DNA of 32,000 nucleotides from a beta proteobacterium MWH-UniP1 (GCA_036362785.1 CP143625.1:217401-249400), one strand, 5' to 3'. Counted from the stretch's first letter, positions 14,125 through 26,197 are shown. Made by a program: numbers and translations. Notes: a model not told the origin generated them from the sequence alone.

Positions 14125-14158
14125 CAAAAAAAAGCCCCAAGCCACAGGGGCTTGGGGT
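14125..14158 (-). terminator. Rho-independent terminator-like hairpin downstream of the toxin-antitoxin pair
   Basis: gccccaagc ... gcttgggg(c) stem. On the minus strand it is followed by a T-run (plus-strand A-run at 14125-14133). Confidence 0.5.
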
Positions 14159-14388
14159 GTAATCCACCAAAGGAGGAGGGTGGAGGAGACAGATTGTAGA
14201 GTAACCCGAATTTTGGTGCGGCGCAACTATTTATGAACCAAAAGTCATTAGAAAGTCAGGGGAGATGATTTGGTCTTTTTAGGGTTGGGGCAGCAAAACC
14301 ACTTTAATAGCATGGTTTTTTAACGGAACCGATTTTGGGCGGTGAGTCCCTTTGCGGACTGCTCAACAGTGTGTCTTAAAAGGACTTG

Positions 14389-14899: not shown

Positions 14900-15094
14900 G
14901 AGCTGCTCCTTCGTAAGATGCAGATGTATACATTGTATAAATTTTGGGCCAAAACGCAACCGCTCGTTTTTCATTAAAAGGATTTGTTGCACGTGGGCCC
15001 GTTAAGCGGAGCGCACTTTAATAACCGCTTCGGGGTTGTGTTGAGTCACGTTGAACAGCAACAGCACTGGACTGTGGGGTGAGGTCACACAAAC

Positions 15095-15122
15095 AAAAAC
15101 CCCCGCTTTGTGAGCGGGGGTT
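15095..15122 (-). terminator. Rho-independent terminator of porin gene 1
   Basis: cccccgct/agcggggg hairpin (15100-15107 / 15113-15120). A T-run follows on the minus strand. Confidence 0.6.
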
Positions 15123-15169
15123 CTCGCGGTTTCTAACTCTTTCAACAGTCTGGTGACTGTCGGGGGAGA

Positions 15170-16321
15170 TTAGAAGCTGTGGGTCAAACCGACGCGAGCT
15201 GTGGTCCGCTTGATATCGTCAGTCGCAGGGGACTCGTCCTTGTCCGAGCCGTACAATGCCCAAGCAGAAGTACGCTTGCTAAATGCATAGTCGGCAATTA
15301 CCTGGAAGCCAGGACGATCAAACGAGGCTGCACCACCAGCTGATGGCTCAGTCTTAGCTGAGGAGTAACCTGCCTTGACCGTGAAGGCTGATGTAACAGG
15401 AACTGCTACGCCAAACTCGGTGTAGCTGGACTTTGACTCGGCTCCAGTGAGACCAATCTTGCGCTGGCCAATCAAACCAGTGACTTTTGCTACTTTGAAG
15501 TCATAGCTAGCACCGATAGCGGCTGTATCGTAGCGGTATTTGCCAGGGCCGGTTTCTACGCCAAAAAGAGACACTCCTTCGGATTTTGAAACGCCGGTAC
15601 CGGAATCAATATCCCCACTACCGAAATGAACTCCCACCGAGAGTGGGCCGGCAACGTAGTTGATGTTTGCTTGGGCCATTGATACGTCATAAAACTCCAC
15701 TGCATCTGTTGCAGCAGCCTCGTAGGAAGCCTTGGAAGCTGAGTAAGCAACGGAGGCGGCGATACCACTAAACGACGGGGTGGTATAGGCGATCTGGTTA
15801 GCACGGGTCAAGCGACTGACTTTATGGCCCTCGTAGCCAGCGGAGTTATCTGTCAACAGGGAATAAGTATCGTTAAAGTCCGTGTCGAGGGTTTTCTTGT
15901 AACCAATTAAGGCTTGACCGAAATTGCCGCTCAAGGTCATAAACGCTTGACGAGTGGCTGCACCGAAGACAGCCGAATCGGCCGAGGTAGTAGAAGTAGA
16001 ACCTTCTCCCGTTCCTGTGACTTTATGGCCATTGGTCTTATCGATTGCTGTACCGTTCGTCAGGTTCAGGCCGGACTCAAGCACAAAACCGGCCTTCAGA
16101 CCACCACCCAGATCCTCGGTGCCACGGAAACCGAGACGGCTCGAGCTATTTGCGCTGTCAGCCAATCCCGTGCTTTTAACGTTGCTGGTTGCGGTTGCCG
16201 AGCCCTTCGTTTCATTTACGCCGTAGGACGCGTCAAGTACACCATAAATGCTAACGTTTTGAGCCATCGCAGGCACTGCAACAGCAGCAGCTACGGCAGC
16301 AGCAATAAGATGCTTCTTCAT
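15170..16321 (-). CDS. Outer-membrane general porin (Gram-negative porin family), paralog 1
   Basis: Signal peptide MKKHLIAAAVAAAVAVPAMA/QN, beta-barrel-like alternating pattern, C-terminal ...VGLTHSF (terminal Phe). Confidence 0.85.
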   Translation of the reverse strand: MKKHLIAAAVAAAVAVPAMAQNVSIYGVLDASYGVNETKGSATATSNVKSTGLADSANSSSRLGFRGTEDLGGGLKAGFVLESGLNLTNGTAIDKTNGHKVTGTGEGSTSTTSADSAVFGAATRQAFMTLSGNFGQALIGYKKTLDTDFNDTYSLLTDNSAGYEGHKVSRLTRANQIAYTTPSFSGIAASVAYSASKASYEAAATDAVEFYDVSMAQANINYVAGPLSVGVHFGSGDIDSGTGVSKSEGVSLFGVETGPGKYRYDTAAIGASYDFKVAKVTGLIGQRKIGLTGAESKSSYTEFGVAVPVTSAFTVKAGYSSAKTEPSAGGAASFDRPGFQVIADYAFSKRTSAWALYGSDKDESPATDDIKRTTARVGLTHSF

Positions 16322-16337
16322 TAATAGTTCTCCTAAA
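16261..16337. repeat. 77-bp segment (porin 5' UTR plus signal peptide), near-identical to 26121..26197
   Basis: Hand alignment gives 3 mismatches in 77 bp against the porin-2 copy. Confidence 0.85.
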
Positions 16338-16652
16338 GGGGAACTACGATTTCAAAACCTTTTTCGACCGTATCGTAATGGCTCCAACACCGCAGCAGCA
16401 TTGGGTTTCAGCGTGTTGCACACCGCGTAGTGTGCGAGAAAAAATCGTGAAGATTTGTTGAAAATATTTTCGATGTTTGACGCTGCGTTTACGGTGCACT
16501 GACGCAATGAGATTGGCATTGATACAATTTCAGTTTTTGTTATCTCGCTTTTATATAGCGGTGTGCGACATTACGCTGTGCAGATGCTGTGTGCTGCAAA
16601 CGACGAAAACTTTTACGCGATACGCTGCCGAACGCTGCCACGGTTAGATACG

Positions 16653-17858
16653 ATGACGCAGATTCCTGGCTATCCCACGAAGTTGAAAATCTTTCAAACC
16701 AATGCATCACGATTTTGGCAAGTGCGTTGCTTCTTTCCGCCTAAAGCCATTATTCGCAGTCTGCGAACTACAAGTAAGCGTGAGGCGATTGCAAAAGCCA
16801 AACTCTTTTATGACACTGAGTTGGTAAAGCGTGGCTTGTTGGCAAGCGATATCAGTAAACGCTTAACGCACAGCGTGGAAGAAGTGGCAGCACTGTTATT
16901 TGATAGTGAGGCTGCACGGCTAAAACGAGACGAGATCACCAAGCAGTCGTATGTGATGCTGACTTGCCGAATACGCAAGCAGGTGTTGCCATTTTTCCGC
17001 AATGTTGCGGTTGAAGATATTGACTACACGCAAGTGGCAAAATTCTTGGCACATCTAAGCCAGCATGACTATAGACCCATGACGATCAAGCAATACATGT
17101 CTGCACTGCGTAGGGTCTTGACATGTGCACACGATCACGGCTGGGTAGAACGATTGCCAAAGTTTCCACAGCTCAAAATACATAGCTCGGCCCGCGGCTC
17201 GTTTGCTGTAGCGGAGTATCGACAATTACTGCGTACAGCCAAACAGCTTCGGCAAATCAATCCCAAACCCATTACGCTTACCCATCGCAGTACACGCGGG
17301 GGGATTTATACGGATACGGAAGGGTTGCCGTGGGAGTTTGCGTGGCTAATTGGTTTTATGGTCAATAGCTTTGTGCGTCCAGTCGATGTCAAAGTCATCC
17401 AGCACAAGCATGTGCAGGTGATACGGGGTGAGCACTGCTACTTGCGATTGGTGCTGCCTGAAACCAAACGCCATAAAAGCCAAGTTATTACACTGCCAGC
17501 AGCCCTGCACATTTATGAGCAGTTAAAGCAGCACTTTGAGCGGCAGGGATTGGCAGGCGAAGAAGACTATTTGTTTTTACCCCAAGTGCAAGATCGTGCC
17601 GCGGCGATGTGGCTGCTTGAGCGGTATTTTGGAAGACTCCTGGATGCAACGGGCTTGCGTTTTAGTGGGCCGGGGGGACGCAGAACGCTGTATAGCCTTC
17701 GCCACTCTGCCATCACTTTTAGGCTGCTGTATGGCAAGGGCATTGACTTGCTGACCCTGGCACGCAATGCCCGCACCAGCTTAGAGATGGTGGATAAGTT
17801 CTATGCAAGCGAGCTCAGTGCCGAGATGAATGTTGCCATGCTGCACAGCAGGCGGTAA
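16653..17858 (+). CDS. Tyrosine-type site-specific integrase (phage integrase family)
   Basis: C-terminal catalytic region with LYSLRHSAITFRL (HxxR) and MVDKFYA (catalytic Tyr), plus an N-terminal SAM-like/core-binding region. Start placed at ATG 16653 (401 aa); the ORF-track GTG at 16563 is less likely. Confidence 0.85.
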   Translation: MTQIPGYPTKLKIFQTNASRFWQVRCFFPPKAIIRSLRTTSKREAIAKAKLFYDTELVKRGLLASDISKRLTHSVEEVAALLFDSEAARLKRDEITKQSYVMLTCRIRKQVLPFFRNVAVEDIDYTQVAKFLAHLSQHDYRPMTIKQYMSALRRVLTCAHDHGWVERLPKFPQLKIHSSARGSFAVAEYRQLLRTAKQLRQINPKPITLTHRSTRGGIYTDTEGLPWEFAWLIGFMVNSFVRPVDVKVIQHKHVQVIRGEHCYLRLVLPETKRHKSQVITLPAALHIYEQLKQHFERQGLAGEEDYLFLPQVQDRAAAMWLLERYFGRLLDATGLRFSGPGGRRTLYSLRHSAITFRLLYGKGIDLLTLARNARTSLEMVDKFYASELSAEMNVAMLHSRR

Positions 17859-17951
17859 TGCACAGGGAGAAGGGGGTATTTTTACCGTATTCCCCATACG
17901 CCAACCCCGTCTCGCTATGCCAGCTCCTCAACCCCCCAAACTCACGCTCAA

Positions 17952-17974
17952 AAAACCCTAATTTAAGGTTTTAG
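17952..17974. repeat. 23-bp near-palindrome, copy 1 (aaaaccctaatttaaggttttag)
   Basis: Identical over 23 bp to 21558..21580. Arms AAAACCC / AGGTTTT surround the TAATTTA spacer. Confidence 0.8.
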
Positions 17975-18144
17975 GCGGCGATGGAAAGTTTCTGGGCGGC
18001 TTTGGCACGGCGTTGGCGTTCCCGTTCTGCTGCCAGCTGCCGCCTTGCTTGCTCCACTTGTGCTTGCAGGGTACGCAGGCGGGCTTCCTGGGGGTTAAGC
18101 GGCTTGGCTGGGGGCATAGCAGGCTTGAATTCAAAAAATCTCAT
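17971..18144 (-). CDS. Possible small (57 aa) Arg/Gln/Ala-rich coiled-coil protein
   Basis: Internal ATG 18142-18144 avoids overlap with the upstream 145-aa gene. The product resembles the small ORF at 24753..24929. No convincing Shine-Dalgarno. Confidence 0.3.
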   Translation of the reverse strand: MRFFEFKPAMPPAKPLNPQEARLRTLQAQVEQARRQLAAERERQRRAKAAQKLSIAA

Positions 18145-18184
18145 CGTCTTGTATTTAAGCTGCCACCCACCCCCATTGCATTGA

Positions 18185-18622
18185 CTACTTGCGAAAGCCT
18201 GAACGCAGGGCCCCACTTGCCAGCTCAATTTGGCTATCGAGCTCGCCAGCTTCCACAGCCGTCTTAACAACCGTCAATGCATCAATTAGCTCGGCTGCGC
18301 TGCCCACCTCGATTGCGGACTTATTTTTCGCCAGCTCAATCAGTTTGCTGCCATAACGCACATTGACACAGACCTTGCCGTTTTCCGCCACGAACCACCA
18401 CGGCTTTATGCGCTTGGCGACTTCCACGGTGGTACGCACGCCATCGGCATCGCGAATGCTTTTAAGTTTCTTGCTGACAAAAGTGCTGCCCGTTTGTTGT
18501 GCCCTTGCAAGTTCAATTTGCTCCCATAGCCGCTTTGACAGCTTGTTGCGTTGGGCCACGATGGCAGGTTGGTTAATGGGCTTTTTTGCCGCAGTTAATT
18601 TGAGACTGGCTAATGCTGACAT
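18185..18622 (-). CDS. Hypothetical protein (145 aa), island-borne
   Basis: Clean ORF with no recognisable catalytic motif. The sequence style (…RLWEQIELARAQQ…KRIKPWWF…) resembles conserved hypothetical proteins seen on integrative elements; this is from memory and unverified. Confidence 0.55.
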   Translation of the reverse strand: MSALASLKLTAAKKPINQPAIVAQRNKLSKRLWEQIELARAQQTGSTFVSKKLKSIRDADGVRTTVEVAKRIKPWWFVAENGKVCVNVRYGSKLIELAKNKSAIEVGSAAELIDALTVVKTAVEAGELDSQIELASGALRSGFRK

Positions 18623-18788
18623 GTGTTTGCTCCTTTAAGTAATGGTTGGAAGCTTTAATTTGCGATCAGTAGCCAGATCTGGGCAAATAGTTTCGCGGCT
18701 CTTGCCTTACCCACGATAAGAATTGAAAGCGATTTTTCTGCAGCTCTTATCTCGTCAAGTTTTTTACGCTACACAATATCCAAAAAAT

Positions 18789-19280
18789 ATGTCAGCATCT
18801 CCCGCCATGAGCGGCCAAGAAAAAGACCTGCTACAAAAACTCCAAGACAAGCTTCTCAAGCTCGTCATGATTGCCCATAGCCATATGCTTACTGAAGAAG
18901 ACGAGCTAGTCTATATGCCGGCGATTCAAGGCGGAGTTAGTCTGGTGCAATTTGATGACGCGCTTCTTTTAAAGCTTGTTGATCTCTCCGCATCCGATTC
19001 TGGGGGCACTTATTTTTTGAAATTTGAGGCGTTAGGCTCTCTTGCTAACGCACTGCAAGCGGGTGGGTTGGCGACAGTGTTTGATGCGTGGCTTATTAAT
19101 GCAAAATTTAAAAGGATTTTTGTGATCGACGAACACTGCGATCTAGAAAAGATATTTTGGCAGGTTGTGACAAAACCAGCGCAGGCGCAAACGCCCCCGA
19201 CAGTCGATCAATTAATGTTGGCACATGAAAGCTTAGACAAACTTTTGGTCTTTTATGCAATGAAATTTTCAAACTCGTAA
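18789..19280 (+). CDS. Hypothetical protein (about 163 aa)
   Basis: ORF 18723..19280; the first ATG is at 18789. No recognisable domain. AT-rich. Confidence 0.45.
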   Translation: MSASPAMSGQEKDLLQKLQDKLLKLVMIAHSHMLTEEDELVYMPAIQGGVSLVQFDDALLLKLVDLSASDSGGTYFLKFEALGSLANALQAGGLATVFDAWLINAKFKRIFVIDEHCDLEKIFWQVVTKPAQAQTPPTVDQLMLAHESLDKLLVFYAMKFSNS

Positions 19281-19354
19281 TTGGTGGCTTTAGGCAAACG
19301 CCTGAAATTCCAAGAATATTTCTCCTTAAGCCGCAAGATCATAAATAAACATGC

Positions 19355-19387
19355 GAGTTGCTATGGAGTTGCTAATGAGTGGCAAGT
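19355..19387. repeat. Three tandem 11-bp units (gagttgctatg / gagttgctaat / gagtggcaagt)
   Basis: Read directly from the sequence. 11-bp periodicity, within a 280-bp intergenic region rich in other short repeats. Confidence 0.6.
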
Positions 19388-19559
19388 CGCCGGGTTAGAA
19401 ACAAGTCACTCGTTACTAGTTACTTGCTGCGACAAATGGCAACGAGCTACCTAAAGTGGCGTTCGTTACAAGCAACCGAAACAAGTGACTTTTTCTCCTG
19501 GCCTGCGACTGCAAAAGCAACACTTGCGACTGGCGACTAACAACAAGGAGAAACACAAA

Positions 19560-20075
19560 ATGAAAAGCAATCAAAAGCACAGCATGGCTGTGCGCTTATA
19601 CGACAACCCAAAGTTCGGCAAAACATTTGGGAAGGGTCTTTATCACAACACACTTTTTAATGGCACAGTGGATTTGCCAGTGCTGGGTCTAAAGTATTTA
19701 ATCGATTTGGTCCAATACGAGCAGTGGCAGCACACCGCCAAAAGCGATCAGGATATGGAGATGCTGGCCACAGCGATTGACTACCTGAAAGCCCAAGACA
19801 TCGATATTGAGTCTGGGGCTAATCGCACCAATATCTTGTGCAGTTGGATAAAGCGGTTTGACAGCAATATGTTGAAACCCAAAGTCCCGGGATTTGCATT
19901 ACTGGATTTGCAGAAGTGCAAGATCACGGTCGTCGTAACGGACGAACAACATGGCATCGCGTTTGGCGAGCGGCTTTGTATGCGCAGCTGCAAGGATCCG
20001 AGCAATGGGCAGCGCAGCCCTAACTACTTTGCCAGCAACTACGACGCAGACACGCGACTGCCACTAGCAGCATAA
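19560..20075 (+). CDS. Hypothetical protein (171 aa)
   Basis: ATG 19560 preceded by AAGGAG (19545-19550). No recognisable domain. Confidence 0.55.
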   Translation: MKSNQKHSMAVRLYDNPKFGKTFGKGLYHNTLFNGTVDLPVLGLKYLIDLVQYEQWQHTAKSDQDMEMLATAIDYLKAQDIDIESGANRTNILCSWIKRFDSNMLKPKVPGFALLDLQKCKITVVVTDEQHGIAFGERLCMRSCKDPSNGQRSPNYFASNYDADTRLPLAA

Positions 20076-20469
20076 GTGCACTGTGTAGGCGCGAGGGTGG
20101 TGGTCAAAAATCACCACCCAGAAAATCCAAGTACTCCACAGCTGAAAAATGCAGCAGCACCCAAAAACCCAGCAAGTTGGCGGGTTATGTGCGCGAGCTA
20201 CGCAAAGCGGGTGTGGGCAGCACTAGCCCAGCAGCAAAACCCCCTCAAAAAAGCCCTACAGCAGCTTTTTGGCTGGCTCCGAATGCTCTGGGTGCTGGGC
20301 TGTGCTGTCGTGCGCTTGTAGGGCTGATTTGCTGTGTGGCGTAAATGCCATGCAGTGCAGCGAACACATAAGGAAATACATAAACCCTTTTCGATTCCAG
20401 CTAAGTGCTTGATTTTTGGAAGGATCTGCAGCGGCCATTTTTAGGTAGGAATTTGCGAGAAATGAAAAC

Positions 20470-20483
20470 ACACTTGCAAGTGT
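20470..20483. promoter_or_regulatory. Perfect 14-bp palindrome ACACTTGCAAGTGT upstream of the small recombinase gene (possible operator)
   Basis: Read directly. It lies 32 bp upstream of ATG 20515. Confidence 0.3.
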
Positions 20484-20514
20484 CAATTATTTGCACACAA
20501 AGGAGCACAGCACC

Positions 20515-21081
20515 ATGGCACAAGCCAAAACACTTACCCAAGCTGAACTTGATCAAGTACTGCGCCACTGCGCACGCACCCGCTACAAAGCACGAAATAG
20601 GGCGATGGTGGTTACGAGTTTTTGGAGTGGGATGCGGGTAGGGGAGATCGCGGCACTAAGAGTGGGTGATGTCGCGAACACGGACGGCACGATCAAGAGC
20701 GAAGTACGGCTTTTGGCGCAGCAAACGAAGGGGCACTATGGCAGGGTGGTATTTTTAAATGACAAACTTAGGGCAGAGCTTGCAGCTTATCTGCGCACTG
20801 TTCGGGTGAAAAATCTCCAGCAGCCACTTTTTTACACCGAAAAGGCGGCAGGGTTTTCAGCCAACACGCTAACGCAGTGGTTCTATTGGACCTACAAAAA
20901 AGCTGGCATTAGTGGTGCCAGCAGCCACAGCGGCAGGCGCACTTTCATCACCAACTTAGCCAGCAAAGGCATTGGGGTGCGGGTGTTGGCAAGTTTGGCA
21001 GGGCACCGATCGATTGCCGTCACGCAGGCATATATCGATGTGAACGATGACATGAAGCGGCAGGCGGTGGAGCTGGTTTGA
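20515..21081 (+). CDS. Small tyrosine recombinase (188 aa, catalytic domain only; FimB/FimE-sized)
   Basis: WSGMRVGEIAALRVGDV (catalytic Arg), SSHSGRRTFITNL (HxxR), LAGHRSIAVTQAYIDV (His and Tyr). AAGGAG about 10 nt upstream of ATG 20515. Confidence 0.85.
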   Translation: MAQAKTLTQAELDQVLRHCARTRYKARNRAMVVTSFWSGMRVGEIAALRVGDVANTDGTIKSEVRLLAQQTKGHYGRVVFLNDKLRAELAAYLRTVRVKNLQQPLFYTEKAAGFSANTLTQWFYWTYKKAGISGASSHSGRRTFITNLASKGIGVRVLASLAGHRSIAVTQAYIDVNDDMKRQAVELV

Positions 21082-21088
21082 CTCACTA

Positions 21089-21538
21089 TCAAGCCAATAA
21101 TCGTCTAAGCCGTTCGATTTTATCTGCATGTTTTATCTGGTCAAATAGTCCGCCATGATCTCGATATATGCTCATGTCTTCCTGAAGTGATTTTTTTAAT
21201 CGAGGATTTAGAGATGTACAAGCTTTTAGTTTAGCCTCAGCTGCGATCTGTTTGTCTGGCCCGACACTCTCTAATGCCTCGATAATCACAGCCAGAGTAA
21301 AAGCATTCTGGGCATTTAACATCGCCTCATATTGCGCATTCGGCGCGAGAAAAAGGCTTTGTCTCATAATTTCGATTGTCTCATCTGCTGCTATGAATAT
21401 AGCATCTATAAATGTCGATAAGTCCTCTGGGCTATTGCTCTCCGCTTGTGCAATTATCCCCATCGCCATGGTTTTCATATATTCCATGCGTTGTGTAATC
21501 GCTTTATCGATCATTGCGGCTGCCTGGGCTTTGTCCAT
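21089..21538 (-). CDS. Hypothetical all-helical protein (149 aa), downstream of the TGT-like gene
   Basis: ATG 21538 preceded by AAAGGAG. AT-rich. No recognisable motif. Confidence 0.55.
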   Translation of the reverse strand: MDKAQAAAMIDKAITQRMEYMKTMAMGIIAQAESNSPEDLSTFIDAIFIAADETIEIMRQSLFLAPNAQYEAMLNAQNAFTLAVIIEALESVGPDKQIAAEAKLKACTSLNPRLKKSLQEDMSIYRDHGGLFDQIKHADKIERLRRLLA

Positions 21539-21557
21539 CCTGTATCTCCTTTTACTT

Positions 21558-21580
21558 AAAACCCTAATTTAAGGTTTTAG
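21558..21580. repeat. 23-bp near-palindrome, copy 2 (aaaaccctaatttaaggttttag)
   Basis: Identical to copy 1. Overlaps the stop codon of the TGT-like gene (21577-21579) and lies 20 bp upstream of the start of the 149-aa ORF. Confidence 0.8.
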
Positions 21581-22896
21581 CCCTCGTAACGAGACGCTGC
21601 CACGGCATCCAGCAAACTGCTGTGTTCATCAAGCAGTGCACGCCAGTCTTTTGCGGCAAATAGCTGCTCAATCAAATCCAAAAGCTGTGCGTATTGCCTC
21701 GGCAACTGATCACGATGCCCACCAAAGGCCAGAGCGTTTGCTCGTCGTGCCGCGTCCAGTATCACCCAGGTATTATGATTTACCAGTAGCTGTGAGCTAA
21801 TCGTATCTAATCGCCTCCCCGCAAATGGGTCAGGGTCAACAGCGAGATGATGCATCATGAGTTTTTGCCCGATTGGCGATTGCAGGTTTGCAGGTATAGG
21901 ATTGTTTGCGTCTGTATGATACTGGTGCAAAGTCATCGTCTGGAATCGATAAGACCAATCCTGGGCTGAAGGCCCAAGATTGATAGGCAAAATATATGCA
22001 TCCTTATTTCCTGCTTGACGCGTCGGTGTGGCACTGTCACAGCTGACTTGCAACAGCGAATTTGTTTTTCTCAATTCACGCTGTATGGCTGTCAGCACGA
22101 TGTCCCAAGTGGGCTGCGACATTCCAAGCACATGCAACCAATCCATCCCTTTTTCAAATGCAGCCTCATCACGCATCATCAGCACGGTGGCTAATACATT
22201 TTTCACACCGCCACGCCAACCTGCAGCACCTGCCAAAGCCCAACCACCACCGCGGAACCACTTCACACTGTCCCACCAACGCTGGATATTTTGTGCATTG
22301 GTGCCTTGGATGACATTAAGCCATTTTGTTCTGCCGCGACGCTCTGCGTCGATAATACGCAGATTCTCTACCGTCATATCGATTAGCTGTTGTTCATTAC
22401 AGCGATGAAAAGGTGAGGCCTTTCCAGATGCGGTCATTGCCCATAGCGGCATGTCAATCGTCATGGCGTAGTCACAATAACGCTCAAGCCAATCGATAAT
22501 CCAAATCTTTGCGTCGTAATTTTCAGCCCACGCACGAACGGCGGCGGCACCGTCCATATTTGCCGTAAGTCCCTTTACGCCTTGCAGCGTGCCTGTGCCA
22601 ATCTGGAAACCTCCGCTGTCACCCACCAATACAAACTCGCCAGCTGTTTTATTAAAGATGCTGCCCCGTGTATCAACACCCACACGATAACCGCCCACGG
22701 AATGCAGCAAGCACTTATGCGTCCATAGTTTGCTATTGCCACTCCAAAATGCGAGATCGGCAAGCGTTAAGCCTGCGGGCAGTGCACGGTCTGCGGGTGT
22801 TGGCAAGTCTGCTACGCGGATGTAGTTCTCGTTTAATGCGGGCAGATACACTGCCGTATCATGGGGCACACTCAGTGCAAATTGATCTGCTGTCAT
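21577..22896 (-). CDS. TGT-superfamily protein (tRNA-guanine transglycosylase fold), DpdA/TgtA5-like candidate DNA or RNA base-exchange enzyme
   Basis: 439 aa. VGDSGGFQIG (nt 22603-22620) matches TGT DSGGFQ. LNVIQGTN matches GIVQGG. GGWALAGAAG matches GYAIGGLSVGE. LHVLGMSQPTWD matches LMGVGxPxD. VSCDSATPTR matches FDCVxPTR. LVNHN matches the HNL motif. No CxCxxC...H zinc motif. Confidence 0.8.
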   Translation of the reverse strand: MTADQFALSVPHDTAVYLPALNENYIRVADLPTPADRALPAGLTLADLAFWSGNSKLWTHKCLLHSVGGYRVGVDTRGSIFNKTAGEFVLVGDSGGFQIGTGTLQGVKGLTANMDGAAAVRAWAENYDAKIWIIDWLERYCDYAMTIDMPLWAMTASGKASPFHRCNEQQLIDMTVENLRIIDAERRGRTKWLNVIQGTNAQNIQRWWDSVKWFRGGGWALAGAAGWRGGVKNVLATVLMMRDEAAFEKGMDWLHVLGMSQPTWDIVLTAIQRELRKTNSLLQVSCDSATPTRQAGNKDAYILPINLGPSAQDWSYRFQTMTLHQYHTDANNPIPANLQSPIGQKLMMHHLAVDPDPFAGRRLDTISSQLLVNHNTWVILDAARRANALAFGGHRDQLPRQYAQLLDLIEQLFAAKDWRALLDEHSSLLDAVAASRYEG

Positions 22897-24695
22897 TTGC
22901 GCAGCCGCTTCATGTTTTCCAGTAGCTGCTGATTTTCAGCTTCGGTGGGGTCAGGCACCAAATCGTCGGGATCTTTGCTGGTTTCCAAACCTTCTGTTTG
23001 CACAGGGTTATAGGGTTCAAAGCATTGCGTGTGTCTCGTACCAGCATCATCTGCAGTGGGGATCCAGCACTCAAAGCTGTTGGCATCCGTTTCAAACTGC
23101 AGCCGTAATGCACCACTGTCTATCGCTAAATCAATATCACCCATGATGTTGAGGTCTGCTATCTGCCGCAGTGTGAACATGAGATCGGCTGAGCGTACCG
23201 TTACACACATAAACTGATTAAATTGCTTGACAGGCAAGGCAAGAGTGCGTGTTTGGCTGTAGCCCACGCCCGTGTCAAGATCAAAGCCAATGATCAATGC
23301 ATTTTTATCTAAGCCCAAGCTCATGGTGCGGTTGAGATCACGATTGGCTTTATCGCCACGATTCTTCACCCATTTATCCACGAACTCGGTAGTCGTCTCA
23401 CGCAGCCAATCCAGGCTAATCTGTGCCGCCCACTGTGCTGAAAATGCATCACTGCGATTGGTGACTTGCCACACTGGCGTGCCCATCGATTCGTAAAACG
23501 GGATAAAGCTCAACGGCGGGTGACTGAGATTTTTAGTCACGGCAAGTATTTGATTAGCGGTGACACCGTCTTTGCCATCCAATATCAGTTTGGTGTCTAA
23601 CTTTACATACTGGGCCGCGATAAATCCGGCTGGCACACGATGGAACTTTTGATCGGAAGATGCACGGAATAAATTAAAAGCGGATTGATGCAACAATCGC
23701 CGCTCGATCGATTGCCGTGCACTCTCCATCAAGAACATGTCACCCTTGCGTTTATCCATCACGGCTTTTTTGGGGCGAGAAGTCAGCACCACGCTGCTAT
23801 CAACGCCTGTGAGACTGAGCAGAAAGTCTGCGGTGTCAGCCCTGTATATCAAACGGCGATGTGCCAGCATAGCTTTGGGTTTTGCAGCCCACGGATCTTT
23901 TATGCGGCTTTTCTCTGCGAGCTTGTCGTAGGCATGTGCGATTGAGCGTGGCACATTGAGAACATGCAAAGGCTCTAACACACTGCGGACAGTGATCGGC
24001 TGTGCGGTAAAGTCATCGCGATAGGTTTTTATTAACGCTTCATCGATCAGTGTGTTGTCGTTGCTGGTGCCCACCAATGTGACTTTGCCGCTGTGTTTGT
24101 GCATGACCACCACGCTGTAGCCTGCATCCGAAGTGTGTAGTGCGGGCATATTGATGCTGGGGCGATGTTGGCTTTGGGCGTAAAACTTGCGAGCTTCATC
24201 GCGTAGCACGGGGATCAGTTCCGCTTCGTTTAGATCAAATAACAGCAGCGGTGCATCTTCGATCAGTTCCTCATCATCAGTCTGCGTGCCGTGATAGCCC
24301 GCCAATCCTGCTTTGCCACCATTAAGCTTTACGAAATGACAGATGGCTTCAACTGGCTCCGTCGCGTAATGATCGGGATATTTTTCAAACTCGTCATGGA
24401 TACGACGCAAAGCTTTTGCCCATAAATCCAAGTCAGTGTCTTGTATTCGGTTGTCGTGCACCAGCCGCAGCAGTGGGCGGAAATTTACGCCGCGAGTTTT
24501 GTTGAAAGTGATGTGGTTATGCTGATAGCAGGCTTCCAGATAGCCAGGCACCGAGGCAGCTTCTCGCCACCATAAGTAAGCGTGGGCCATGATGCGGCGT
24601 TCATGCTCGCGGGTGAGTTTTTCTAAGACTGCAAAGTTGGCGACATCAAGTTGTAGTTCCGCCAGCCGTGTGTCCAGATTGAGTGTCTGTGCCAT
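22893..24695 (-). CDS. Large hypothetical protein (600 aa), translationally coupled to the TGT-like gene
   Basis: Long uninterrupted ORF. AAGGA 9 nt upstream of ATG 24695. The stop overlaps the downstream start (ATGA at 22893-22896). I could find no Walker A, ParB/DGQHR, HNH or PD-(D/E)xK motif. Confidence 0.75.
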   Translation of the reverse strand: MAQTLNLDTRLAELQLDVANFAVLEKLTREHERRIMAHAYLWWREAASVPGYLEACYQHNHITFNKTRGVNFRPLLRLVHDNRIQDTDLDLWAKALRRIHDEFEKYPDHYATEPVEAICHFVKLNGGKAGLAGYHGTQTDDEELIEDAPLLLFDLNEAELIPVLRDEARKFYAQSQHRPSINMPALHTSDAGYSVVVMHKHSGKVTLVGTSNDNTLIDEALIKTYRDDFTAQPITVRSVLEPLHVLNVPRSIAHAYDKLAEKSRIKDPWAAKPKAMLAHRRLIYRADTADFLLSLTGVDSSVVLTSRPKKAVMDKRKGDMFLMESARQSIERRLLHQSAFNLFRASSDQKFHRVPAGFIAAQYVKLDTKLILDGKDGVTANQILAVTKNLSHPPLSFIPFYESMGTPVWQVTNRSDAFSAQWAAQISLDWLRETTTEFVDKWVKNRGDKANRDLNRTMSLGLDKNALIIGFDLDTGVGYSQTRTLALPVKQFNQFMCVTVRSADLMFTLRQIADLNIMGDIDLAIDSGALRLQFETDANSFECWIPTADDAGTRHTQCFEPYNPVQTEGLETSKDPDDLVPDPTEAENQQLLENMKRLRK

Positions 24696-24700
24696 GGCCC

Positions 24701-24723
24701 AAAATCCTTAATTTAGGGTTTTT
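24701..24723. repeat. 23-bp near-palindrome, copy 3 (aaaatccttaatttagggttttt), diverged
   Basis: Same TAATTTA centre. Its arms match copies 1 and 2 at about 19/23 positions in either orientation. It starts 6 bp upstream of the 600-aa ORF start and contains that gene's AAGGA Shine-Dalgarno. Confidence 0.7.
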
Positions 24724-24752
24724 GGCAAGCATAACGCAGCTATATGGGATAG

Positions 24753-24929
24753 GTGGTTCGCACTGCCACCAAACCCCAGAAACCCAAGACGCCCGCGGAG
24801 CAGCGTGTGTCGGCGTTGAAGACACAGCTGGATCAGGCTCGCGTGGCGGCTCGGAGGCAGCGGCTAGCTGCGAGGCAGGCACGGTTGAACCAAGAACGGG
24901 CGGCTTTAACTAAAAACATTGGTCAATAA
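24753..24929 (+). CDS. Possible small (58 codon) Arg/Gln/Ala-rich ORF or gene remnant
   Basis: GTG start directly after a TAG, with a poor Shine-Dalgarno. Not in the ORF track (<60 aa). The product QKPKTPAEQRVSALKTQLDQAR... resembles AKPLNPQEARLRTLQAQVEQAR... from 17971..18144. Confidence 0.25.
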   Translation: MVRTATKPQKPKTPAEQRVSALKTQLDQARVAARRQRLAARQARLNQERAALTKNIGQ

Positions 24930-24962
24930 AAAACCCCCGCCTTGTGAGCGGGGGGTTTTTGT
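24928..24962. terminator. Rho-independent terminator of porin gene 2 (bidirectional shape)
   Basis: cccccgc/gcggggg hairpin (24934-24940 / 24949-24955), flanked by an A-run and a T-run. Paralogous to the terminator at 15095..15122. Confidence 0.6.
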
Positions 24963-25002
24963 GGTTTCTAACTCTTAGACAGCGTGATCGCTGTGGGGGA
25001 GA

Positions 25003-26181
25003 TTAGAAGGTGTGGACAATGCCGAGTGCAGTTTGGCTGTACTTGTCTTCCTTAGCATCAGCATGGGTACCCTTATCGAGCTTGGTCTCACCGGTGATCA
25101 GGTAAGCAGATGTGCGCTTGCTAAATGCATAGCTCGCACCAAGCGAGTAGCCGCTGACATTGCGGCTTTCGGTGGTTCCCGCGGCAGCCGCAAGCTTGTT
25201 CTTGCCGTCAGAGTACTGGCCCATCAAAGTGATTGCACCGAGAGGTAAACGGAGACCGACGCTCATTGCGTCTGCTTCGCCTTCACCCTTGGCAATTGCC
25301 TCGAGGTCATTGTCCAGTTCTTTCTTGCCGTATTGGAGGAACGCCTGCGCCACGCCAAAATTGTAAGAGCCACCGATCACGGTTGTCTTGACTTTTCCAT
25401 CGAAAGCGGCGACAGCCTCAGATGCCACTAACGATGAGCCGGCTGTCAAATAATTGCCTATGCTTAGCGCCTCGTTCTTCTGCTTGACATCCTGGTAGGC
25501 AGCGCCAATTGACAGGGGGCCATCTGCGTACTGCAGCGCAGCAATGTAGCCAGACTGAGCTTTTGCGGATTTGTCGTTACTACTTCCCAAATTGGCATCG
25601 TCGTTTTTAGAGATTCCAACCGTGCCCTTTAGTCCCTTGACCAGAGTCTGGGACACTTGGATACCAGTGCGGCGGTTGCTGGAGAATTGGCTGTCGTTGT
25701 TTAGGACATTACCAACCATGTTCGAACCGGCCATGGCGTCATAGGCAATCGTGAAATCACGGATCGGGGTCGAGCCAAAACCAACACGAACATCGGTTCC
25801 TGTGGGGAAGGACAGGGTTGCGAAGATCCCGCGATCACCAACCACTGCGTTGTCGAGTGTGGTGCCGTTTCCGTTGTTGGTACCGTTGGCGTTCTGGGGG
25901 TTTTTCTCCAAGCCACTACGCATGTTGGTGCTGATGCCGGTCTCAACCGTAAAAGACGCCTTGAGACCACCGCCGAGATCCTCCGTGCCGCTGATACCCC
26001 AACGGCTTGAAGAGTTGGAACTAAAGCCAACAGCAGACTTCTTTGCGACCTTCACGCCTGCAGTTTCACGCTCAATCGTGCCGTAGCCAGCGTCCAACAA
26101 GCCGTAGAAAGTAACATTCTGAGCCATCGCGGGCACTGCAACAGCAGCAGCCACGGCGGCAGCAATAAGATGCTTCTTCAT
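25003..26181 (-). CDS. Outer-membrane general porin, paralog 2
   Basis: Signal peptide identical to porin 1 (MKKHLIAAAVAAAVAVPAMAQNV). GTEDLGGGLKA motif shared with porin 1. C-terminal ...GIVHTF. Confidence 0.85.
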   Translation of the reverse strand: MKKHLIAAAVAAAVAVPAMAQNVTFYGLLDAGYGTIERETAGVKVAKKSAVGFSSNSSSRWGISGTEDLGGGLKASFTVETGISTNMRSGLEKNPQNANGTNNGNGTTLDNAVVGDRGIFATLSFPTGTDVRVGFGSTPIRDFTIAYDAMAGSNMVGNVLNNDSQFSSNRRTGIQVSQTLVKGLKGTVGISKNDDANLGSSNDKSAKAQSGYIAALQYADGPLSIGAAYQDVKQKNEALSIGNYLTAGSSLVASEAVAAFDGKVKTTVIGGSYNFGVAQAFLQYGKKELDNDLEAIAKGEGEADAMSVGLRLPLGAITLMGQYSDGKNKLAAAAGTTESRNVSGYSLGASYAFSKRTSAYLITGETKLDKGTHADAKEDKYSQTALGIVHTF

Positions 26182-26197
26182 TAATAGTTCTCCTAAG
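26121..26197. repeat. 77-bp segment (porin 5' UTR plus signal peptide), near-identical to 16261..16337
   Basis: 3 mismatches in 77 bp by hand alignment. Confidence 0.85.

Follow-up and report, generated by a model that had tools for sequence, protein, structure and literature searches.

The 32,000-nucleotide stretch of beta proteobacterium MWH-UniP1 analysed here (GCA_036362785.1 CP143625.1:217401-249400; hereafter the window) carries a small integrase island in which the gene for a 600-amino-acid (aa) protein overlaps the gene for a 439-aa protein. We conclude from sequence comparison that the 439-aa protein is a zinc-less enzyme of the tRNA-guanine transglycosylase (TGT) superfamily, predicted to be catalytically intact, with the DpdA2 DNA transglycosylases as its nearest characterised relatives. 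Its partner is, by its predicted model, a DNA-clamp-fold protein in place of the ParB-like DpdB. That the two form a two-subunit, clamp-assisted DNA guanine transglycosylase using host-made 7-deazaguanine is a reading to which we give an even chance. What is new is the DpdA-like clade, the type of accessory subunit and the mobile island family, the chemistry itself probably being the known one.

A sequence-only reading of the window had picked out the TGT hallmark motifs in their proper order in the 439-aa product, and this was borne out. The order is DSGGFQ, VIQG (residues 195–198), GGGWALAGAAG, LGMSQPTWD and CDSATPTR. Across 194 aligned family members from both the island branch and the phage branch described below, D93 is kept in 194, D148 in 193, D287 in 193 and F/Y97 in 194, and G96, Q98 and H255 are invariant (194/194). 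Because the three catalytic Asp residues and the aromatic are kept in 193–194 of 194 relatives at identities down to 20–30%, the motif set is, judged from the alignment, beyond chance. C166 and W51 are branch-specific invariant residues of the island branch. The same reading was also right that there are four Cys residues (C62, C141, C166 and C286) and no zinc site: CxCxxC is missing, none of the alignment columns is more than 50% Cys across the 194 members, and the CDCYTC of Tgt is without counterpart. The only remnant of the site is a histidine, H374, present in 190 of the 194. The NHNVWVY segment of the family pairs with a Tgt helix which presumably carries the zinc-ligand His.

Relatives of the 439-aa protein number more than 534 in a 90%-clustered protein collection, all of them named ‘hypothetical’ and none with a Pfam domain; the contig index has no entry for the exact window protein. 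Searches of Pfam, NCBIfam, PADLOC and PHROGs gave no match to the protein even at E ≤ 1, and sequence searches of the PDB (phmmer, hmmsearch) returned nothing significant, TGT appearing at E ~1.3 only. The AlphaFold model (predicted local distance difference test (pLDDT) 95.8; predicted template modelling score (pTM) 0.94) was compared with the PDB using Foldseek. The top 13 matches are all TGTs (E 1e-7 to 7e-5, probability 1.0), and unrelated glycosidases with a triosephosphate isomerase (TIM) barrel rank after them (~1e-4 and weaker). In a search of predicted viral structures (BFVD), the best match after the family's own phage members is the Achromobacter phage Motura ‘tRNA guanine transglycosylase’ (4e-12); also returned were a protein from Vibrio phage nt-1 equal in length to DpdA2 (9e-7) and several proteins annotated as queuine tRNA-ribosyltransferase, i.e. 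of the DpdA type.

The family was compared by hhalign with a DpdA2 profile made from nt-1 DpdA2 (YP_008125322) and a few relatives. The match (97.1–97.2% probability; E 4.4–4.8e-11; 184–216 columns) spans all three Asp motifs; the control comparison of DpdA2 with Tgt gave 85%. The alignment of the family with E. coli Tgt is collinear over 342 columns. DSGGFQ aligns with residues 101–111 of Z. mobilis TGT, with E. coli Tgt and with DSGGLQ of DpdA2; AMTIDMP, containing D148, aligns with GMCFDEIP of DpdA2 and VMIFDEC of E. coli Tgt; and VSCDSATP, containing D287, aligns with ISYDSstH and MFDCVMP, respectively. Further motif pairs are GDSGGFQ with DSGG[LF]Q, NVIQG with the QG strand, GWALAG with G.A.GG, HVLG with [HY]LMG, and S.DSASP with the nucleophile-Asp motif. 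Comparisons with single sequences of E. coli Tgt, 9g DpdA1 and phiST DpdA3 were uninformative (0.3–18%), and small DpdA1 and DpdA3 profiles gave ~1%. These weak scores against shallow templates were not counted against homology because accepted superfamily members score as badly, DpdA1 and DpdA3 being equally weak against Tgt under equal conditions.

Profile match and searches together place the family best as a sister clade of DpdA2. It is not filed simply as DpdA2 because identity is ~18% and tblastn does not retrieve it; with the window, PA5oct and Vibrio proteins as queries, the same 13 phage records were returned, none of them nt-1-like. Membership in DpdA3 was rejected (DpdA3 has 259 aa, no phmmer match and an hhalign value of 1.3%), and the Pfam family of DpdA4, DUF6610, did not match the 439-aa protein. 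Thus the fold search, the DpdA2 profile match and the census of catalytic residues all support the earlier assignment to the TGT superfamily as a DpdA-like protein. It does not cluster with housekeeping Tgt: the Pfam TGT family PF01702 is unmatched, as it also is (at E ≤ 1) by five phage and plasmid relatives, and the nearest family by profile is DpdA2.

We regard as highly improbable an enzyme acting on RNA, namely a divergent TGT paralog whose partner would be an RNA-binding or scaffold subunit, as QTRT2 is for QTRT1. The zinc cysteines of tRNA TGTs have no counterpart here, the profile neighbour DpdA2 is a DNA enzyme, the partner resembles DNA clamps in its fold, not TGTs, the phage relatives lie in DNA-modification clusters, and the window locus is a mobile defence island rather than queA/yajC. 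What speaks for RNA is that the solved structures matched best are TGTs acting on tRNA, with QTRT1 of the heterodimeric eukaryotic enzyme among them, and that local hhalign against E. coli Tgt reaches 64% for the family, above DpdA1 and DpdA3.

For the 600-aa partner, the sequence-only reading had found no motif it could name. This stands as far as sequence families are concerned, there being no Pfam, NCBIfam, PADLOC or PHROG match to the protein at E ≤ 1 and no PDB sequence match, and neither a Pfam domain nor a PDB sequence match among 36 diverse relatives; it does not stand for structure. The AlphaFold model (pLDDT 83.8, pTM 0.68) has a helical N-terminal part of ~175 residues, a disordered linker and an alpha/beta region at ~190–565. 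Foldseek returned 225 PDB matches at E ≤ 1e-3, and the 50 matches listed are all DNA sliding clamps, including human Rad9 of the 9-1-1 complex (Rad9-Hus1-Rad1), PCNAs and bacterial Pol III beta, with a TM-score to the target of up to 0.63 over ~320 columns. By sequence inspection no P-loop or Walker motif was found in the partner, a conserved GGK being off the Walker A pattern, nor was an internal sequence repeat. An exhaustive HMMER search gave 456 representative clusters for the partner family, 214 of them at E ≤ 1e-30; full-length matches are mostly ~550–690 aa, with some shorter fragments. The family was not found in IMG/VR. The replicative clamp of phage 9g was considered as a relative and rejected, as it shows no sequence similarity.

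Conservation of the pair was surveyed in 63 loci, one genome per species, with open reading frames (ORFs) assigned by local hmmsearch and clustering; 51 loci with a TGT-like gene make up the core clade. The clamp gene lies directly upstream on the same strand in 49 of these, and the remaining two are without usable upstream sequence. The distance from clamp stop to TGT-like start is −20 to +13 nucleotides (nt) in 48 of 52 loci, and in four (L033, L035, L037 and L039; Burkholderiales and related) an ORF of ~200 codons (~600 nt) is placed between the two. Starting from the other family, clamp members at 27% and ~20% identity to that of the window again have a TGT-like gene only a few nucleotides downstream. 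The stop/start overlap from which a functional pair had been proposed is present in the window, and adjacency and coupling are conserved from both families' sides. The short recombinase (42/51), the large integrase (34/51) and DUF6641 (33/51) complete a set of only five conserved genes, everything else being variable. The earlier reading is therefore refined: the short recombinase and DUF6641 are co-conserved as well, the islands are defence islands, and a phage sister branch is tied to 7-deazaguanine biosynthesis.

Most hosts are Beta-, Alpha- or Gammaproteobacteria from fresh water or the sea (Limnohabitans, Polynucleobacter, Pseudohongiella, Rhodobacteraceae, Rhizobiales), and two copies are present in several genomes. 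The two copies in one Pseudohongiella genome have ~12.7 kb in common, and the end of this common segment falls within a tRNA gene adjoining the integrase, as is typical of integrative islands. Genes for tRNA abut the integrase end at L013:16473-16545, where the shared-segment boundary falls inside the tRNA, and at L018:14955-15027. Other insertion sites are a secA neighbour (L001, L003) and the porin genes (window); in L010 a porin adjoins the clamp gene. Azospirillum (L005, pAB510d 434862-437713) and Rhizobium wenxiniae (L063) have a clamp-less, phage-like TGT-like gene beside a short recombinase, which in Azospirillum is 48% identical to that of the window; L063 also keeps DUF6641 and an integrase. 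A 560-aa Azospirillum protein, PA5oct gp167 and a 666-aa protein of L070 were rejected as diverged clamp partners (probability <1%). The 510-aa neighbour in L063 gave a weak collinear match to the N-terminal half of the clamp-partner family (5%, 267 columns, E 0.007).

It is quite unlikely, in our estimate, that the pair serves the life cycle of the island, for example by starting replication or transfer through a covalent Asp-DNA link with a clamp-like factor or by marking element DNA alone against restriction. The pair is the sole conserved non-recombinase function in an element of 8–13 kb without recognisable replication or transfer genes, several genomes carry multiple copies, the short recombinase is co-conserved even in the divergent clamp-less elements, and the operon is flanked by palindromes in 8 of 43 loci. 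None of the conserved genes is a polymerase, primase, helicase or relaxase, island-type elements of the family were not found in IMG/VR, and homology indicates base exchange, not strand transfer; the anti-restriction version overlaps with the clamp-assisted transglycosylase preferred here.

Next to the five conserved genes, the variable cargo of the islands includes defence genes. Among them are a type I restriction-modification (R-M) system with DUF5655 (L192:1-7820), a type III R-M pair with a GajB-like helicase (L034:299-8258), a NaeI-family endonuclease with, as its neighbour, a gene from the same cluster as the confirmed C-5 methylase of L026 (L020:12927-15183), an AriA/PtuA-like ATPase (L003:5532-7118), DitA (L044:4893-6497), and ThiF and IrrE-like genes in the Pseudohongiella islands. 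The islands are thus small mobile defence islands in which the pair, the recombinase, DUF6641 and the integrase are constant and the defence genes are variable.

This setting bears on the idea that the pair is itself an anti-phage effector, in which the clamp would load on foreign or replicating phage DNA and the enzyme would damage it by excising guanine or modified guanine or by inserting a toxic base, with no self-marking. The pair is constant in islands whose variable cargo is defence systems, TGT chemistry passes via a base-excised covalent intermediate (PMC10164549), a defence class only lately recognised consists of glycosylases that attack phage DNA with 7-deazaguanine (bioRxiv 10.1101/2025.10.29.685425), and pure excision needs no que genes. 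Those antiviral glycosylases, however, show no link to TGT-like proteins (bioRxiv 10.1101/2025.10.29.685425). Moreover, the phage sister branch is found in modification pathways, the base-binding residues are all common to both branches, PADLOC gives no match and there is no conserved nuclease to process abasic sites. We consider such an effector unlikely.

The phage branch came to light through tblastn relatives at 22–25% identity in PA5oct-like jumbo phages, Sinorhizobium phage Phosso and Vibrio phage 2.275.O, together with the Azospirillum megaplasmid; in IMG/VR at least 586 viral contigs have a relative of the 439-aa protein. A 7-deazaguanine pathway gene lies within 10 kb in 67 of 80 sampled viral loci, and in 27/27 of the loci with at least 18 kb. 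Over the 80 loci, QueD/DpdL-like genes were counted in 65, FolE in 39 and QueE in 20; neither clamp partner, short recombinase, integrase nor DUF6641 was found in them. The phage relatives adjoin polymerase and primase genes in DNA-modification clusters, the jumbo-phage members sitting by QueE, QueF, QueC or FolE genes. In Vibrio phage 2.275.O the order is TGT-like, amidoligase-like, QueF, COG1738 transporter and a queuosine-biosynthesis gene, and in PA5oct a QueE-like gene is 3 kb from the TGT-like gene. The DNA of PA5oct is resistant to several restriction enzymes, with a pattern that suggests modification of G; QueE- and QueD-like genes are present in this phage, and no transglycosylase has been named for it (PMC12191111). 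Similarly, Vibrio phage 2.275.O appears in a 2019 survey table with pathway genes present and the DpdA columns blank. PA5oct gp168 and its relatives are therefore candidates for the missing transglycosylases of apparently G-modified or DpdA-blank phages, and the phage branch gives strong guilt-by-association that the chemistry of the family is 7-deazaguanine insertion into DNA.

A further gene of the phage loci is PA5oct gp167 (L004:7596-8657; ~350 aa), which has a weak glycosyltransferase-1 match and in PA5oct overlaps the gp168 stop with its start. Similar genes occur in 55 of the 80 viral loci and in L060, L061 and L065–L067, and the protein may perform a second hypermodification step.

The contrast in pathway genes between the branches is a point in favour of DNA base exchange with an incoming base other than 7-deazaguanine, i.e. 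another purine analogue or a host metabolite: que, folE and YhhQ genes are found in none of ~50 islands versus 27/27 long viral loci with pathway genes. DpdA subfamilies do shift substrate (PMC10516641), and C166 and W51 are examples of residues invariant in the islands specifically. Nevertheless, we take a different base to be very unlikely, in view of the base-contacting D148, Q197 and F/Y97 being the same in both branches and of the precedent of phages with a singleton DpdA that use host precursors (PMC6884629).

For the preferred reading, a clamp-assisted DNA guanine transglycosylase fed by the host, a mechanism can be proposed by analogy to the double displacement of TGT and DpdA. In Salmonella bDpdA (bacterial DpdA), Asp95 is the acid/base, Asp130 recognises the base, Asp256 is the nucleophile and Phe99 is the aromatic residue (PMC10164549). 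Correspondingly, D287 would attack C1' of the target deoxyguanosine, displacing guanine and forming an intermediate in which enzyme and DNA are covalently linked, with D93 as general acid/base and D148 and F97 holding the base; a free 7-deazaguanine would then resolve the intermediate. The 600-aa protein would be the obligate DNA-handling subunit, its clamp-fold region binding or encircling DNA to deliver or retain the enzyme (loading, processivity), and would thereby take the job that DpdB, a ParB-like ATPase, does for bacterial DpdA. The base (preQ0, preQ1 or a derivative) would be supplied by the host queuosine pathway, as the islands have no que or folE genes. Proteobacteria usually make preQ0 or preQ1. 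The benefit may be that DNA of the island and the host is marked or shielded from restriction, including restriction by R-M systems that other elements carry as cargo. We infer that DNA is the substrate and that the two proteins interact physically, and likewise which base is used and what the biological role is.

Several observations weigh against this reading. Neither PF01702 nor the PADLOC DpdA profile is matched even at E ≤ 1, and the TM-scores of the 439-aa model to solved TGTs are low (0.42–0.55, and 0.37–0.55 over the top 13 matches). The clamp assignment comes from one AlphaFold model (pTM 0.68) and Foldseek, with sequence giving no support. Since nt-1 DpdA2 alone inserts preQ0 into DNA and needs no partner in E. 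coli (PMC10516641), the role of the clamp partner is left unexplained. The inserted base is a guess, because no island has que or folE genes or a preQ1 riboswitch, and the purpose of a modification is unclear because no restriction component is conserved across the core loci. Finally, the pair, being the constant core of a mobile element, might work instead for the propagation of that element. A bolder version, which we hold to be rather unlikely, makes of the clamp and the TGT-like enzyme a DNA-tracking base-exchange machine of a new kind, with a ring or clamp sliding on DNA or loaded onto it and bearing the transglycosylase, that acts as a stand-alone immune or anti-restriction system without a nuclease, or writes a base other than 7-deazaguanine, with the short recombinase as a third partner, for instance in switching or targeting.

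Table 1. Positions of the island, its genes and sequence motifs in the window, and of unannotated phage members of the clade
Feature	Position	Strand	Remarks
Island, approximate extent between tandem porin paralogs	16337..24923		~8.6 kb; porin flanks repeat on either side
Large island integrase, 431 aa	16563..17858	+	Phage_int_SAM_5 and DUF6538 matches; homologs carry Phage_integrase
Third palindromic motif copy	17952..17974		94 nt after integrase stop; sequence
DUF6641 protein, 145 aa	18185..18622	-	Pfam PF20346, 1.4e-12; usually adjoins large integrase
Variable cassette, 185-aa and 196-aa ORFs	18651..20235		No family matches (Pfam, NCBIfam, PADLOC, PHROGs)
Short tyrosine recombinase, 196 aa, catalytic domain only	20491..21081	+	Pfam Phage_integrase 2.7e-24
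Third operon gene, 149 aa	21089..21538	-	AAGGAG and ATG directly after TGT-like stop; close relatives only
Palindromic motif copy across TGT-like stop codon	21558..21580		Sequence
TGT-superfamily, DpdA2-related transglycosylase-like enzyme, 439 aa	21577..22896	-	Structure and profile matches
D287 codon, predicted nucleophile Asp	22036..22038	-	bDpdA Asp256; kept 193/194
D148 codon, predicted base-recognition Asp	22453..22455	-	bDpdA Asp130; kept 193/194
DSGGFQ motif, residues 93-98	22603..22620	-	D93 predicted general acid/base (bDpdA Asp95); F97 predicted base-stacking aromatic (bDpdA Phe99)
ATGA stop/start overlap, 4 nt (translational coupling)	22893..22896	-	Sequence
Clamp-fold partner, 600 aa: helical N-terminal domain ~1-175 and clamp-fold region ~190-565	22893..24695	-	Predicted model
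Palindromic motif copy	24702..24724		6-30 nt upstream of clamp-gene ATG; sequence
PA5oct gp168	L004:5974-7596		TGT-like clade member, unannotated
Phage Phosso protein	L006:6968-8617		TGT-like clade member, unannotated
Vibrio phage 2.275.O AUS03049	L007:4671-6461		TGT-like clade member, unannotated

As the sequence-only reading had it, both genes of the pair belong to an integrase island, which has the 431-aa integrase and the 196-aa recombinase and lies between porin paralogs (Table 1). Its ends are approximate because no attachment (att) direct repeat was found at them. The absence of DpdB, helicase, nuclease, queC/D/E and folE genes from the island was likewise confirmed, none being found (including ParB-like proteins) in searches with Pfam, NCBIfam, PADLOC and PHROGs or when phage Que proteins were used in phmmer. 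Neither a preQ1 riboswitch nor any other Rfam element was found in the window island, and no tRNA gene in the window. The 149-aa ORF has its own AAGGAG after the TGT-like stop and so looks like part of one operon with the pair; a 151-aa ORF takes the homologous position in L195 and L196, and other loci have no conserved copy. The short recombinase aligns solely with the C-terminal domains of XerC, XerD and XerA and with profiles of ~200-aa tyrosine invertases; like these FimB/E-type profiles, it is too short for a core-binding domain.

The same island is found at the same site in L195, a contig from another metagenome, 87–91% identical to that of the window; the two differ solely in the cassette that separates the short recombinase from DUF6641. 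The porin flank repeats are at 15090-16336 and 24924-26196. Two paralogous Porin_4 genes flank the island (15170-16321 and 25003-26181, both on the minus strand), with 5' and 3' ends that are 85–95% identical and a spacing of ~9.84 kb. Beyond them the flanks are ordinary betaproteobacterial chromosome with purB, mnmA, pntAB, an argC-type dehydrogenase, rpsI/rplM and msbA, as well as genes for a heptosyltransferase and an O-antigen ligase. Also outside the island, a Betaproteobacteria_toxic_sRNA (RF02278, 63 bits) was seen directly upstream of rplM/rpsI, at 14127-14191 (minus strand).

An AT-rich palindrome of 21–25 nt brackets the clamp/TGT-like operon, with the sequence AAAACC(C/T)TA(A/G)ATTAAGGATTT in the window. 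Flanking palindromes are significant (z ≥ 4) in 8 of 43 loci (window, L001, L010, L012, L016, L019, L021 and L030); their sequence is locus-specific and the arrangement recurs. Since the palindrome has no T-tract, it is probably not a terminator but serves as an operator, RNA hairpin or site of recombination. Inversion of the operon by the short recombinase acting at the palindromes was considered and is unsupported, given their significance in the 8 loci only and their greater resemblance to operator or RNA-hairpin sites. An orphan Rfam motif, Polynucleobacter-1 RNA (RF01718; 51.8 bits, gathering threshold 37), was detected inside the island at L001:12994-13091 (minus strand), with the short recombinase on one side and DUF6641 on the other. 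At E ≤ 1 the window island gave no match to this motif, which may be one of the island family.

These results add a large unannotated sister clade of DpdA2 (over 500 proteins from bacteria, at least 586 viral contigs), a second type of accessory protein that is structurally unrelated to DpdB (456 representative clusters), and a family of small mobile defence islands of freshwater and marine Proteobacteria with the pair as its constant core. They offer jumbo phages such as PA5oct and Vibrio phage 2.275.O, whose transglycosylase is missing, a candidate for it, and they provide a two-gene system in which the access of a TIM-barrel transglycosylase to duplex DNA is directly testable. If it is true that the pair modifies host or island DNA, an epigenetic mark widespread among environmental bacteria escapes the tools now used for annotating defence and anti-defence. 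The obligate clamp-fold partner and the size of a wholly unannotated clade are what would surprise a specialist.

Five subfamilies of DNA 7-deazaguanine transglycosylases have been described, bDpdA and DpdA1 to DpdA4, with DpdB as the only known accessory factor. A literature search found no paper linking a clamp-fold protein with DpdA and no mention of DUF6641, DUF6876 or DUF6538. Closest to the window enzyme is the phage DpdA2 of nt-1 (YP_008125322) and VH7D, which inserts preQ0 or preQ1. Both are TIM barrels of the TGT superfamily and similar in length (464 versus 439 aa), and the profile match covers the DSGG, second-Asp, QG, G.A..G, H.LG and nucleophile-Asp motifs. At ~18% identity, however, the window enzyme is undetected by phmmer and tblastn; and whereas DpdA2 sits in phage preQ0 clusters and works alone, the window enzyme is on a bacterial island, has no que genes nearby and is coupled to a clamp-fold protein.

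The Dpd system of Salmonella Montevideo (DpdA/DpdB/DpdC with DpdD-K) is likewise island-borne, uses host preQ0, has an equivalent Asp triad and aromatic residue, and needs a DNA-encircling accessory. There, the DpdB ATPase is required in vitro and has been modelled as a closed dimer round a 20-Å tunnel fitting double-stranded DNA (PMC10164549). The two accessories differ, the one of Dpd being a ParB-like ATPase with DGQQR and that of the window having a PCNA/beta-clamp-like fold and no Walker motif on inspection. Beyond the transglycosylase, the window system does not qualify as a Dpd R-M cluster, with no DpdB, DpdC or DpdD-K among the conserved genes; bDpdA is absent from the top structural matches of the window enzyme, and PADLOC gives no DpdA match. 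Tgt and QTRT1 (PF01702) give the best solved-structure matches, with hallmark motifs collinear over 342 columns, and differ from the window enzyme in having the zinc CxCxxC and belonging to PF01702, which it does not match, as well as in partner and genomic context. The highly divergent DpdA3 (Cellulophaga phage phiST gp042, Campylobacter phages) and DpdA4 (DUF6610) are TGT-like proteins beside FolE/QueD/QueE-type clusters without QueC, as in the phage sister branch.

With sliding clamps (PCNA, Rad9-Hus1-Rad1, Pol III beta and phage processivity factors), the partner has in common the fold of its region ~190–565. It differs from them in having no sequence similarity, in an extra helical N-terminal domain of ~175 aa, and in its islands being without clamp loader, polymerase or replication genes nearby. 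A parallel, of position only, is provided by phage 9g, where dpdA (gp03) directly adjoins the replicative clamp gene (gp02) and the DNA polymerase (L009:2006-3960).

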